40,380 nt of DNA from Candidatus Komeilibacteria bacterium. GTDB taxonomy: Bacteria > Patescibacteriota > Patescibacteriia > UBA1558 > GWA2-36-10. Where the stretch lies: positions 1-40,380 of the forward strand of contig JABHYW010000040.1 of the NCBI GenBank assembly GCA_018656655.1, read 5' to 3'. The position numbers and the translations under genes are program-made. This document shows positions 18,465 through 35,537 of the stretch, piece by piece (position 1 is the first letter of the stretch; the number at the start of each line of letters is the position of its first letter). The notes under the pieces were generated by a model. The model searched no databases, was not told the DNA's origin, and saw only the letters and a program-made list of their open reading frames with translations.

Positions 18465-20537
18465 CTATATATCTAAATTCTTTACAGACTTAGCGTGAGT
18501 TTGAATAAACTTCTTACGTGGCGCTACTTCAGCTCCCATAAGTATCTCAAAAATTTGATCTGCTTTAGCAGCATCTTCAACAGTTACTTGTTTCATTAAT
18601 CTAGTAGCTGGATCCATAGTAGTTTCCCAAAGCTGTCCTGGATTCATTTCACCTAAACCTTTATAGCGCTGAATATTGACCTTAGGAACGCCTTTTTTAT
18701 TTTTAATTTCTTGACCTTCATCGCCTTCTTCTACTTCTTCTGGAATTAGATCATCTTCAACAATGCCATGTTTCTTTTTAAGCTTCTCCAATTCTGCATC
18801 ATTAAAAACCCAAGTAAGCTCTTTTCCTTTTTTGAAGCTATATAGCGGTGGTTGAGCAACATAAACATGCCCTCCCTTAACAAGCTCAGGGAAATATCGA
18901 TAAAATAAAGTAAGAAGTAACGTTCTGATATGAGCACCATCAACATCGGCATCGGTCATAATAACCACTCTGTCATATCTTAGATTCTCTATATTAAATT
19001 GCTCACCGATATTAGTACCTAAAGCAATTATAAGATTCTTAACTTCATTATTAGCTAACATCTTATCAAGTCTAGCTCTTTCTACATTAAGAATTTTACC
19101 TCTCAATGGTAGAATAGCTTGAAATCTTCTATCCCTACCTTGTTTAGCAGAACCTCCAGCAGAATCACCCTCCACAATGTATAATTCACATTCTTTTGGA
19201 TCACGACTAGAACAATCAGATAATTTACCTGGTAAAGTAAGCCCCTCTAAAGCCCCTTTACGTAGCACTGTCTCTCTAGCAGATCTAGCAGCCATACGAG
19301 CTTGAGCAGCTAGTAAGCACTTACCAAGCATATCTTTAGCATCTCTTGGATTTTCTTCTAAAAACGTATCTAAAGCTACTGAAAAAATTGATTCTACAGC
19401 TGGACGTACTTCGACATTACCTAATTTAGCTTTAGTTTGTCCTTCAAACTGTGGATCGGGTAATTTAACACTAACAATAGCTGTTAAGCCTTCCCTAACA
19501 TCTTCAGCAGTCAAATTTTGATCTTTTTCTTTTAAGAAATTATTCTTACGGGCATATTTATTTAATACTCTGGTTAATGCTGCCCGGAAACCAACCAAAT
19601 GACTACCACCTTCTGGATTAGAAATATTATTAGCAAAAGCATAAACATTTTCTCTAAAATCACTAGTATATTGAAAAGCAACTTCAACAGTTATCTCATC
19701 CTTATTTTTATTTACATAAAATACTTTTTCTTGCTTTACATCATGACCATTATTTAAATGCCTAATGTAAGAAGCAATTCCGCCTTCAAAATAAAATTTA
19801 TGTGATTTTTTATTTTTTGGATCACGTTCATCATAACAATTAAGCTTAAGACCTTTAGTAAGATAGGCTTGCTGACGAATATGATCTATTATTGTTGGCC
19901 AATCAAATTCTGTAACTGTAAAAATAGATGCATCTGGCAGCCAAATTTGAGTTGTACCCGTATCTTTAGCTTTGCCAATTGCCTTAACTTTGCCCTGTGC
20001 TTTACCAATCTTATATTCTTGAGCCCAAAGTTTACCATCACGTTTAACTTCAGTTCGCATCCAAATAGACAAAGCATTAACTACAGAAACACCAACGCCA
20101 TGCAAACCACCTGATACTTTATATCCACCATCACCAAATTTACCACCAGCATGCAAAGTAGTCATTACAGTTTCTAAGGCAGATTTTTTACTGACTTTAT
20201 GTTTCTCTACTGGAATACCACGACCATTATCTGAAACTGATACTTTTCCTTCTGGAAGTAAAGTAATTTCAACTGTGTCCGCATGACCAGCCATAGCTTC
20301 ATCAATACCATTATCTACTGCTTCCCAAATTAAATGATGAAGACCAGTAGAGGCTGTATTACCAATATACATACCTGGTCTTTTTCTAACTGGATCCAAT
20401 CCTTCTAAAACGGTAATCTGAGCAGCACCATAGGCGTCTTTATTTTTAACAGCCCTTCGACTTTGCTCAGGACCTTCGGCTTTTTTGGCTGTTTTCTTAA
20501 CGGCTTTAACAGGTTTTTTTACTACTTTTTTTGGCAT
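18465..20537 (-). CDS. gyrB: DNA gyrase subunit B, with Lys-rich N-terminal extension and repeat-derived insert
   Basis: [53 protein letters not shown]. Confidence 0.96.
20453..20479 (-). repeat. 27-nt family A element in frame in gyrB ([10 protein letters not shown])
   Basis: cccttcgactttgctcaggaccttcgg; removal restores KKAVKNK. Confidence 0.85.
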
Positions 20538-20551
20538 ATATTATTATATTA

Positions 20552-20642
20552 AATCCCTCCCCCGCCTCCCTTTGACAAGGGAGGAGCTACCTCATTAAAT
20601 TAAGCTTGTTAAGCCCCCTTGATAAAGGGGGTTTGGGGGATT
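20552..20642. repeat. REP-like family F doublet in the gyrB 5' region
   Basis: Hairpins cctccctt-tgac-aagggagg and ccccctt-gata-aaggggg; 20611-20642 is an exact inverted copy of 36474-36505. Confidence 0.85.
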
Positions 20643-20648
20643 TCTCTA

Positions 20649-20682
20649 TGCTTATTTTATCATAAAATAAGCAAAAAAACAA
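20649..20682 (-). promoter_or_regulatory. Putative gyrB promoter overlapped by a perfect palindrome
   Basis: TTGTTT-17nt-TAAAAT with TGn; inverted repeat tgcttattttat-c-ataaaataagca at 20649-20673. Confidence 0.5.
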
Positions 20683-20723
20683 CCAAAATTGATTGTTTTT
20701 TTATATAAATATTTTACCTAATA

Positions 20724-34110: not shown

Positions 34111-34138
34111 CCCGTCCGAAGCTTTATGCGAAGGAGGG
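34111..34138. repeat. Family B element upstream of atpE
   Basis: cccgtccgaagctttatgcgaaggaggg. Confidence 0.75.
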
Positions 34139-34206
34139 CTGACAATTCCAGGTCGATCTTTTTTTATTGTTTTACGTCGCCTAGATTATCTATATTAATT
34201 ATATTT

Positions 34207-34265
34207 GTCATTCTGAACTTGTTTCAGAATCCCATTGTGAGATCCTGAACTAAATTCAGGATGAC
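34207..34265. repeat. REP-like family E full doublet
   Basis: gtcattctgaacttgtttcagaatc...gatcctgaactaaattcaggatgac, with inverted arms. Confidence 0.85.
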
Positions 34266-34288
34266 GAAGTGTGTTTTAAAATGACCTC

Positions 34289-35230
34289 CTAATGTGCGTG
34301 TTCAGTAGAAGCAATAGTATAATATACTAAAGTTAATATTGAAATAATAAGTGCCTGAATAATACCAACAATAACCTCTAAAAACATAAATGGCAATGGC
34401 ACTCCAAAAGCAATCAAGGCAGCAATTGAAGCAATCAATACTTCACCAGCAAAAATATTACCAAAAAGCCTAAATGATAATGAAGCTACTTTAGCAAATT
34501 CTCCAATTATTTCTAGTAAACCTACAAAAAACATAATAGGATTAATAATGATTACTGTCCAATCTTCTTTTATCTTGCCAGGAATCTCTATTAAGGCTTT
34601 TATATTTACAAATTTATTAAAATAATTCCAGCCACCGACAACCATAATACCAAAAATATTAGCAGATACTATAGAAAATAATCCTAAAGCTAAAGTTGTA
34701 TTTAAGTCAGCCGTAGCTCCTCTGAAAATAGCTGTACCGTCATAAGTAATAGAACCTAAGCCAGGAACTAAGCCTAACCAGTTATTAATCAAAACAAATA
34801 AAAAGATTCCAAATATAATTGGAAATACTTTTTTACTTTTAGCCCTATCATTAGTTACCAAGTCCATCATATCTAAAGCACCATTTATAATTATTTCTAA
34901 GAAACTTTGAAAAACTCCTGGGATGCGACTATTTTTAGCCCTAATAGTTAATGACAAAATGATAATTAAAAAAACTGCTACCCAAGAGGTCAACAGTGAA
35001 TTAGTGACATTAAAGTCACCTATATTAAAAACAGTTTCTGCATATAAAGTATGTTCGTGTTCGTCATGAGCCTCGCCTTCATGACTAGTGCCATGGGCGT
35101 CTTCATTTATGATATCTTCAGCCTTTCGGCCTTGCTCAAGACCTTCGGCGTGAAGAGTTTCTGTTTCGTTTGTATGATCAGCGACCGACGCGTGATCTAT
35201 ATCTTGATTATTATTTGTCTCTTGACTCAT
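34289..35230 (-). CDS. atpB: ATP synthase Fo a, with His/acidic N-terminal extension and repeat-derived insert
   Basis: NWLGLVPG, TADLNTTL, SLSFRLFGNIFAGE, IQALI; start placed at MSQE (35230). Confidence 0.95.
   Translation of the reverse strand: MSQETNNNQDIDHASVADHTNETETLHAEGLEQGRKAEDIINEDAHGTSHEGEAHDEHEHTLYAETVFNIGDFNVTNSLLTSWVAVFLIIILSLTIRAKNSRIPGVFQSFLEIIINGALDMMDLVTNDRAKSKKVFPIIFGIFLFVLINNWLGLVPGLGSITYDGTAIFRGATADLNTTLALGLFSIVSANIFGIMVVGGWNYFNKFVNIKALIEIPGKIKEDWTVIIINPIMFFVGLLEIIGEFAKVASLSFRLFGNIFAGEVLIASIAALIAFGVPLPFMFLEVIVGIIQALIISILTLVYYTIASTEHAH
35122..35148 (-). repeat. Family A element in frame in atpB (A-EGLEQGRK-A)
   Basis: cctttcggccttgctcaagaccttcgg; 23/27 identical to the gyrB copy. 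Confidence 0.85.
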
Positions 35231-35537
35231 TTTCGTCTTTTTTCTTCCCTTCGGCTTCACTCAGGGTCTTCGATTTAGTTTCTTCTTTTTCAATTCTTTT
35301 CATGTATTTAACTCCTGTAATACCTATTCCCACAGAAGAAATGATAAAGGCAGCAGCCGTAATACTGAGAAAGTATAATGGTTCTGTTCCTTGCTTTTCG
35401 TCTAACCATCGACCCAAAAATAGAGCTCCAATAACAGGGAAAGCAATCCAGCCAGTAGATTCGGCAAACATCAGCATTCCTTGTCTTAGCCACTCATTAT
35501 TGGCTTTATTTTTATTGTCATTTTTGACAGATGGCAT
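35211..35537 (-). CDS. AtpZ/AtpI-family ATP synthase accessory protein
   Basis: GALFLGRWLDEKQGTEP two-TM motif; first gene of the atp operon, overlapping the atpB start. Confidence 0.88.
   Translation of the reverse strand: MPSVKNDNKNKANNEWLRQGMLMFAESTGWIAFPVIGALFLGRWLDEKQGTEPLYFLSITAAAFIISSVGIGITGVKYMKRIEKEETKSKTLSEAEGKKKDENESRDK
35247..35273 (-). repeat. Family A element in frame in atpZ/I, different phase (SKTLSEAEG)
   Basis: cccttcggcttcactcagggtcttcga. Confidence 0.85.

Follow-up and report, generated by a model that had tools for sequence, protein, structure and literature searches.

A 24-27-nt hairpin repeat, probably mobile and non-coding, in genes and spacers of a Candidatus Komeilibacteria genome

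Why should one GC-rich sequence of 27 nt recur inside the genes for GyrB, a helicase and two ATP synthase proteins of a streamlined bacterial genome? The question is raised by a contig of 40,380 nt from a Candidatus Komeilibacteria bacterium (JABHYW010000040.1, assembly GCA_018656655.1), the whole of which we call the window. It is contig C64 of the source genome (G000), a Patescibacteria metagenome-assembled genome (MAG) of 779,582 bp in 65 contigs, with 32% GC and 84% completeness. An earlier note on this DNA had described an 'exact 27-nt unit' in these four genes, present on one strand and read only in the stop-free phases, and had taken it to be conserved at the nucleotide level and filtered by selection on the reading frame. 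The repeat, named Family A, is a GC-rich hairpin of 24-27 nt with the core CCTGAGC-NNA-GYCGAAGG. On the evidence below, Family A is probably a real family of repeats that spreads by inserting copies and codes for nothing; it would belong to the same kind of element as the SDR repeats of cyanobacteria, and may be identical with SDR5. Two features go beyond what the note had seen: the repeat forms a hairpin whose stem covaries, and several bacterial phyla have its core in common.

The four genic copies lie where the note had placed them, all on the minus strand, which is the coding strand, and the 20-nt core in an intergenic position is on the opposite (plus) strand, as described (Table 1). The word 'exact' has to be given up as far as the copies themselves are concerned, which show 0-1 mismatch to a degenerate consensus, but the length of 27 nt is real, since the atpB and atpZ sites have exact gaps of this size in the closest congener (G002, whose GyrB is 93% identical). 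A degenerate 25-mer made from the earlier consensus matches the window at the four genic copies and nowhere else, with 0 matches in 100 dinucleotide shuffles. Translation of the host open reading frames returns the peptides previously read from the copies (e.g. LEDPEQGRRA, AEGLEQGRKA and SKTLSEAEG), while one excision product, KKFPTPLF for the helicase, needs correcting: G000 gives KKF/TPLF (here and below the slash marks a junction), and the P is found only in orthologs. The copies are not an artefact of assembly, because all of them recur, with no indel, in independently assembled contigs of four public seawater or marine runs, and 2/4 of these runs carry no flag as a possible source.

The sample of four can be extended to 40. 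Searching G000 with the 17-nt core (CTGAGCNNAGYCGAAGG) at 0, 1 and 2 mismatches yields 18, 30 and 40 copies, and G002 yields 15, 26 and 38, against 0, 0, 0 and 0, 0, 1 in the respective controls (the genome reversed, not complemented). By a crude rule that calls a copy genic when it lies in an open reading frame of at least 120 aa, the 40 copies of G000 divide into 20 genic and 20 intergenic ones. When the host frames are scanned with Pfam, 16 of the 40 are sense copies in 14 supported genes, to which the atpB copy, whose divergence hides it from the core search, adds a 17th copy and a 15th gene; three supported genes hold antisense copies (a MurD-like ligase, RNase H and a pilin-like gene). 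Statistics of sense and frame refer to these 17 and three copies of G000. Two sense copies each are found in the genes of a class I aminoacyl-tRNA synthetase and ribosomal protein S5 (rpsE), and one each in those of RpoD, ribulose-phosphate epimerase, glycogen synthase, a MiaB-like radical-SAM enzyme, PSP1, a YbaK-like editing protein, a Wzx-like flippase, a NUDIX protein, a DUF5667 protein, AtpZ, the helicase and GyrB. Most sense copies (14/17) are in linkers or in tails at either terminus that no Pfam domain envelope covers, and some of those near the N-terminus may precede the actual start codon.

The restriction to stop-free phases, asserted from four copies, extends across the genome: the reading is PE(Q/R)SRR in 16 sense copies and LSEAEG in one, and the third phase, which holds TGA (CC-TGA-GC), is used by 0/17, so that frames stand at 16:1:0. 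The claim of a single strand is true of all four genic copies in the window and, genome-wide, of the genic subset only (17 sense to 3 antisense); intergenic copies are unbiased. In G000 and G002 together, 9 sense and 15 antisense copies lie between co-directional genes, 12 copies lie between convergent genes and 1 between divergent genes. Because the sense bias is genic only, the one-strand feature is a filter on the encoded peptide and not a property of insertion. All three antisense frames of the consensus are open (in our own translation their products include FGFAQDLR), and the genic copies that survive are mostly sense ones, encoding the hydrophilic AEGPEQSRR. The use of two frames, the antisense and intergenic copies, the in-frame gaps at empty sites, the avoided TGA phase, the sense bias of genic copies only and their position mostly outside domains together support the proposal that the unit is conserved as DNA and that selection on the reading frame acts as a filter.

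Evidence that the unit spreads comes from a site-by-site comparison of the whole G002 genome with G000. Both flanks map no more than 200 nt apart in G002 for 26 of the 40 copies, and at these comparable sites G002 shows 8 clean gaps, 2 net gaps, 6 larger indels containing the site and 1 replacement of a terminator loop, the remaining 9 sites being occupied in both genomes; adding the atpB copy brings clean G000-only sites to 9. The empty orthologous sites on which the earlier interpretation hung are thus present, and their gaps measure exactly 27 nt (two in the aminoacyl-tRNA synthetase gene, and in the MiaB-like, Wzx-like, atpZ and pilin-like genes) or 24 nt (the MurD-like gene and RNase H). 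Net gaps of 18-21 nt are found in gyrB (18 nt) and the DUF5667 gene. At atpB, where the gap is again exactly 27 nt, the empty site of G002 reads CACGCC/GAAGAT, and at the intergenic site in the window G002 has a diverged form of the core. The reverse comparison yields at least 3 clean G002-only sites, with gaps of 24-30 nt in G000, and two cases of nesting in which a second unit sits inside the first, directly after CCTG(A). At three terminators a short loop in G000 is replaced by the core in G002, e.g. ctccccgc-tga-gcggggag versus ctccccgtc-CTGAGCAAAGCCGAATG-gacgggga. Every clean indel in a gene has a length divisible by 3; intergenic ones (16, 30, 58 and 67 nt) are not so restricted.

Could the gaps instead be deletions from an ancestor that bore all copies? 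For gyrB and the helicase, four further congeners (G001, G003-G005), which serve as outgroups to the G000/G002 comparison, argue against this. The gyrB copy is missing from the GyrB genes of 5/5 congeners. At the helicase site, G000 and G002 each carry a Family A copy, the two lying 12 nt apart with that of G002 upstream, G001, G003 and G004 are empty, and G005 holds an unrelated small insert; this loop looks like a permissive hotspot that has been hit more than once. In addition, copies of G000 with the loop GAGCAAAG or GAGCAAGG are either missing from G002 or present there only in diverged or shifted form, and such a private loop signature is what a recent burst from one source copy would leave. 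The aligned sites show that the unit has apparently been gained as a block, in bursts and at new sites, these sites including hairpin loops, palindrome centres and the repeat's own loop. A miniature inverted-repeat element (MITE) or other derivative of an insertion sequence was considered and rejected, as there are no terminal inverted repeats with a target-site duplication and the unit is too short to accommodate such repeats.

If the encoded peptide is not what is conserved, what is? The 12-nt apex GAGC-NNA-GYCGA occurs 87 times in G000 and G002 and 0 times in the reversed control, and the bases that flank it remain complementary while changing identity. The first flanking pair is paired in 81/87 instances (shuffle maximum 72; T-A in 54, C-G in 25), the second in 73/87 (maximum 57; C-G in 42, T-A in 23), the third in 84/87 (maximum 83) and the fourth in 79/87 (maximum 76); pairs 5 and 6 of the same 87 instances are paired no better than chance. 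At least six distinct stems keep the pairing: CCT/AGG, CTC/GAG, TTC/GAA, CAC/GTG, CCC/GGG and CTT/AAG. The member just downstream of gyrB, for example, has the same 12-nt apex on a CTC/GAG stem instead of CCT/AGG, and some 20 copies of this variant are found in the two genomes. Part of the flanking complementarity may derive from insertion into hairpin loops that already existed.

These patterns suggest a fold with a Watson-Crick stem, a U-A pair, tandem G.A/A.G pairs, a mini-stem of G-Y and C-G, a GNA triloop and a one-base bulge at C13. In the genic 27-mers the 5' arm, GYCGAAGG, duplicates the 3' arm; the 3' boundary (...CGAAGG[G]) is sharp, and the 5' arm varies between lineages. Folding of the four genic copies as single RNA sequences (ViennaRNA) finds only the atpB copy to beat shuffles (z = -4.0), but comparative stem counts are to be preferred here because the program gives no credit for sheared G.A pairs. 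The apex contains GCGNAGY, and the excerpted text of PMC13037366 describes d(GCGNAGC) as an ultra-stable DNA mini-hairpin. The resemblance has limits: that excerpt treats an in-vitro physico-chemical motif and not a genomic repeat family, most Family A copies end in T and not C, and the burst copies of G000 have A at the first loop base. We infer that Family A is non-coding selfish or neutral DNA, and that the hairpin apex, and not protein-coding content, is the property conserved in it, including between phyla.

The phylogenetic range of the core bears on this directly. The exact 18-mer core is present in 24 of 41 relatives (reversed control 0), and the exact core in 71 of 301 evenly drawn Patescibacteria genomes, with 1-28 copies each (reversed control 0). 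Genomes of other phyla were chosen for having at least one match, so the evidence from them consists only of copy numbers set against a zero reversed control. By this measure the exact core has 34 copies in an Acidobacteriaceae MAG, 20 in Flavobacterium tructae, 17 in a Dehalococcoidia genome, 15 in Microcoleus and 2 in Treponema saccharophilum, and the 17-mer core has 7 in Nostoc, 78 in a Microcoleaceae genome and 561 in an Oscillatoriales genome, the reversed count being 0 throughout. Scans of collections of genomes and viral contigs give at least the matches listed, with about 500 chance matches estimated per 596 Gb. Among the matches listed, the cross-phylum set comprises 136 instances, in which position N8 is G in 118/136 and Y12 is C in 31/136; the -1/+1 pair is paired in 94%, compared with 68% in shuffles, and the six upstream bases follow G-C-Y-Y-R-Y. 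Past this pair, pairing in the cross-phylum set is at the level of shuffles, and only local subfamilies have a longer stem. Viral contigs contribute 136 instances in 120 loci, again among the matches listed, with N8 = G in 124/136 and the -1/+1 pair paired in 121/136.

Several of these genomes arrange the unit in unusual ways. The Oscillatoriales MAG (G347, locus L038) has its 561 exact 17-nt cores in a genome of 6.0 Mb, which makes about one every 11 kb, and they often stand in tandem runs at 32-41-nt spacing and within heptamer arrays. Tandem arrays are also seen in an Alphaproteobacteria MAG (three 24-nt units in L063) and in a Patescibacteria genome (G068:C6:6242-6412, four copies at 51-nt spacing). 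An element of about 100 nt that ends in the Family A core occurs in the C61:3724 region of G000, at C6:172608-172782 of G002 and in L007, and is missing from G002 at the C61 site; to judge by its surroundings, it looks as if it stands directly after the CCA end of a tRNA gene.

Family A most resembles repeats of heterocyst-forming cyanobacteria, in which Elhai et al. (2008, Genome Res 18:1484) reportedly described very small mobile repeats (SDR1-8) of 21-27 nt. Like the SDRs, as far as the excerpted descriptions go, Family A consists of clean indels of 24-27(-30) nt that are dispersed and non-coding, leave gaps at orthologous sites and have no assigned mechanism or function. The resemblance can be made more specific. 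Cyanobacterial copies of the Family A core split the HIP1 palindrome (GCGATCGC) as GCGAT/unit/CGC at the two loci examined (L432 and L084), which corresponds to a position between nucleotides 3 and 4 of HIP1 on the other strand; in the available text of PMC4390886, SDR5 is reported to insert precisely between nucleotides 3 and 4. Because the split matches this reported insertion, the core is probably SDR5 or close kin, and Family A (sequence CCTGAGCNNAGYCGAAGG), compared by description with the cyanobacterial repeats, is probably of the same kind. The cyanobacterial units are about 21-25 nt long and are also found in phase within tandem arrays of heptamers (L411, L425 and L439). There are differences. 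The excerpt of PMC5861425 confines SDRs to a few Nostocaceae and states that none was found outside that family, whereas multiple copies of the core are present in Patescibacteria, Acidobacteria, Bacteroidota, Chloroflexota and Oscillatoriales as well as on viral contigs; and the Family A unit is 27 nt long with a duplicated GYCGAAGG arm, and stands in frame in essential genes. Text searches of the literature by core sequence or by peptides (PERSRR, LSEVEG) returned primer coincidences only, and a search on repeats with sheared pairs and a GNA triloop returned nothing relevant.

Other repeats found in protein genes are less similar. Rickettsia palindromic elements (RPE) are, on the standard reading, selfish DNA tolerated at permissive positions of proteins; they are specific to Rickettsia and about 100-150 bp long. 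Family A shares with them its palindromic character and its presence in frame in functional open reading frames (17 sense copies in 15 genes), but its unit is only 24-27 nt and its core is common to several phyla. Short GC-rich mobile hairpins in AT-rich genomes, including in protein genes, are also known as the GC clusters and 'byp' elements of yeast mitochondria and the double-hairpin elements of fungal mitochondria. All of these are organellar, and the byp elements are skipped by the ribosome, in contrast to Family A copies, which are translated, as the avoided TGA frame and lengths in multiples of 3 indicate.

Before the alternatives are considered, the points that weigh against a mobile, selfish Family A should be set out together. 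No target-site duplication is found at the clean junctions (e.g. aaagaa/../gtaaaa in C24), only AAG/GAAG microhomology; since neither such a duplication nor a trans-acting factor was found, the word 'mobile' is carried by the comparative gaps alone, and no insertion event has been observed directly. No insertion polymorphism (indel) was seen at the window copies in the contigs of the four marine runs, and since contigs lose rare variants, fixed copies in them say little about polymorphism in populations. Subfamily copies are related, so that shuffle controls overstate their independence, and it is safer to rely on how many different stem types there are. The bare match counts of large collections are not evidence, because about 500 chance matches are expected, and it is per-genome controls and the hallmark statistics that carry the claim. 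The incompleteness of G000 means that the absence of a gene from it is not proven. Finally, the nine sites kept in both G000 and G002, together with the covarying stems, would also be expected of a functional RNA or DNA hairpin, and purely selfish non-coding DNA does not usually keep an apex so nearly identical from phylum to phylum, which points to a universal constraint, be it physical stability or a ubiquitous host factor.

These last observations lead to the alternative that survives best, namely that Family A is a functional RNA or DNA module (such as a cap stabilising terminators or the 3' ends of mRNAs, or a binding site for a host factor present in all bacteria) that is kept by selection, its genic copies being by-products. 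Besides an apex invariant between phyla on a covarying stem and the nine shared sites, such a role would account for the many intergenic copies found in hairpins between A-runs and T-runs and for the excess of copies between convergent over divergent genes (12 versus 1); the stability of GCGNAGC would also suit it. The sequence might further fold in a K-loop-like way, CUGA facing GA across the strands, though on our own reading of this K-turn-like CUGA/GA pairing it permits a bulge of 1-2 nt only, where the K-turn motif has a bulge or loop of 3 nt beside its tandem sheared G.A pairs. Orientation speaks against the idea, however: intergenic copies occur in sense and antisense (9 and 15), the one between two atp genes of the window is antisense, and an antisense RNA would lose the G.A pairs. 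Nor is there a member of the L7Ae protein family in any of five high-copy genomes (0/5), or a match of the copies to any Rfam family (in a scan of the whole window and two scans of 80-90 nt, at E up to 10). Close relatives have no copy at the same terminators, and 230 of the 301 Patescibacteria genomes have no exact copy at all. We therefore consider selection for such a module an unlikely explanation.

If Family A instead spreads by insertion, how might it do so? A tentative possibility is that host replication or repair inserts it, by template switching at the hairpin aided by microhomology, and that no dedicated transposase is involved. Replication would stall at a hairpin and the template would switch onto an existing copy, with short homology (GAAG or AAG) guiding insertion to Lys/Glu-rich tracts of AAG and GAA. 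There are hints of such a process at the junctions: a duplication of the target is not seen, left junctions are usually AAG, the unit ends in GAAG(G), and the empty atpB site already has GCCGAAG, which is the 5' arm of the unit. Targeting of AAG/GAA tracts would also help to explain the 16:1 bias in frame without calling on selection alone. A bolder proposal, which we regard as doubtful, is that the 18-27-nt unit is a pan-bacterial mobile element that needs no transposase, has crossed phyla, rides on viral contigs and spreads through its stable apex alone. It might do so by one of two routes, either through template switching of replication at the hairpin or as a single-stranded hairpin fragment that survives because it resists nucleases and is used to patch breaks in AAG-rich tracts, at the tips of hairpins and at palindrome centres. 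If true, this would be the smallest known mobile DNA that is autonomous in effect, and SDR5 would represent a local bloom of it in cyanobacteria.

Copying through RNA is another conceivable route, in which a stable hairpin RNA (such as a terminator fragment) would be reverse-transcribed and its cDNA inserted. Reverse transcriptase genes (RVT_1) are present in both G000 (C23:4-426, cut by the contig end) and G002 (C29:28859-29467 and C6:168220-168882; 385 and 472 aa), and priming at the 3' end would fit a sharp 3' boundary with a 5' arm that varies between lineages. Across the 301 genomes, RVT_1 is found in 30/71 with the motif and 68/230 of the others (odds ratio 1.7, p = 0.06), which is a weak association that ignores phylogeny, and the 41/71 motif-bearing genomes with no RVT_1 match include G093 (10 copies) and G017. 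The copies also lack an A-tail or other mark of retro-insertion. The open frames, of 208 and 385-472 aa, are in what we take to be the size range of reverse transcriptases from diversity-generating retroelements. Such enzymes replace sequence rather than insert it, which counts further against this route, and we regard it as improbable.

Similar difficulties attend mobilisation in trans by a Y1 transposase (RAYT or IS200-like) acting on the single-stranded hairpin, as for elements of the REP/REPIN type. These are described, in the excerpted texts of PMC3116915 and PMC3733652, as short extragenic hairpins near the 3' ends of genes that are thought to be non-autonomous mobile DNA, and the excerpt of PMC3733652 also places REPs inside genes, often of replication and repair. 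Family A is likewise a short hairpin, partly intergenic and sometimes in genes, and it sometimes occurs as inverted pairs (L097, L030 and L100); Y1_Tnp matches are present in G270, G295 and G093, which have the three highest copy numbers in the phylum sample once this family is set aside. The Y1_Tnp profile has no match, however, in G000, G002 or G017, despite their 18, 15 and 9 exact copies and signs of recent activity, nor in 34/71 motif-bearing Patescibacteria genomes. Among the 301 genomes, 37 have both motif and Y1, 34 the motif only, 93 Y1 only and 137 neither (odds ratio 1.6, p = 0.10, ignoring kinship). An unpaired GTAG or CGTC tag is missing; the flank is GCYYRY on the 5' side and unconserved past +1 on the 3' side. 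Moreover, Family A combines a variable stem with a fixed apex and keeps the same sequence across unrelated phyla, whereas REPs co-vary with their RAYT. A Y1-mobilised element is accordingly improbable as well. Least likely of all is a motif at the protein level, with selection in many proteins for a peptide like AEGPEQSRR because of its function. Although 16/17 sense copies share one frame and the peptide is hydrophilic, this is refuted by the existence of intergenic copies (about half of all) and of three antisense genic ones, and further contradicted by the single copy in another frame, the conserved synonymous positions and the orthologs that do without the peptide.

Table 1. Family A copies and their host genes in the window (positions count from its first nucleotide)
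Feature	Position	Strand	Details
Family A copy in Lys-rich N-terminal tail of GyrB	20453..20479	-	AEGPEQSRR, residues 20-28 of 690
Family A copy in PD-(D/E)XK nuclease part of UvrD-type helicase-nuclease	25384..25410	-	LEDPEQGRRA
Diverged Family A copy in N-terminal extension of AtpB (ATP synthase subunit a)	35122..35148	-	AEGLEQGRKA
Family A copy in C-terminal tail of AtpZ/AtpI (Pfam ATPase_gene1)	35247..35273	-	second open frame, SKTLSEAEG
Intergenic core copy between two atp genes	33291..33310	+	20 nt, antisense to operon, flanked by complementary AAT/GTT
Stem-variant member CATCTC-GAGCGTAGTCGA-GAGATC	18431..18454	-	10 nt downstream of gyrB stop codon
Host gene gyrB	18465..20537	-	Pfam DNA_gyraseB, Toprim, HATPase_c
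Host gene, UvrD-like helicase fused to PD-(D/E)XK nuclease	24944..27973	-	Pfam
Host gene atpB (ATP synthase A chain)	34289..35260	-	Pfam
Host gene atpZ/atpI (ATPase_gene1)	35211..35537	-	Pfam

Family A is not the only small repeat in this DNA. A second family of GC-rich palindromic mini-inserts (the TCCTCCTTCGCCAAGGCTTCGGAGGAC type) has two members on the minus strand inside the helicase gene, at 27041-27073 and 25268-25300, which read SSFAKASEDA and HSEAPSSRKAS; the second is missing from 5/5 congeners. The helicase gene of G000 thereby holds three small inserts, and a unit similar to the TCCTCCTTCGCCAAGGCTTCGGAGGAC type lies near C8:19561 of the same genome. Upstream of atpB, at 34205-34232, is a hairpin repeat GTCATTCTGAAC-TTG-TTTCAGAATC, of which a relative, gtcatcctgaactagtttcaggatc, is found in contig C30 of G000. 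A third small GC-rich family (CCTGCCTTGCCG..AGGCAGG) occurs in the window at 5349-5395 and 14401-14432 and in the helicase of G005 (L139), which has an insert that reads PTGQAGQ (ccggacaggcaggtc) at the loop where G000 and G002 carry Family A. Short contig joints in public assemblies (20480->34207 and 27073->33292) coincide with the ends of other mini-hairpins and of Family A copies; with joint sides of only 20-25 letters, they may be mere graph tangling.

What is new here is an SDR-like mini-repeat in an unexpected host and inside essential genes, with a core that is possibly pan-bacterial. There are practical consequences: four contig joints with sides of 20-25 letters, a kind that is often spurious, touch two of the repeats, the inserts create spurious motifs of 'hypothetical proteins' (e.g. 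PERSRR and LSEVEG), and they add lineage-specific peptides to conserved marker proteins that are used for phylogeny. The gaps of 24 and 27 nt between close relatives provide a clean and easily scored comparative readout, and the question of how cyanobacterial SDRs move, open since 2008, can now be tested in many hosts, among them Flavobacterium and filamentous cyanobacteria that can be cultivated and have from tens up to hundreds of copies. If our reading of Family A holds, a 24-27-nt piece of non-coding DNA is mobile and active, with no identifiable enzyme, in a streamlined genome of 0.8 Mb, and would be tolerated there even inside gyrB, rpoD, rpsE, atpB and an aminoacyl-tRNA synthetase gene.

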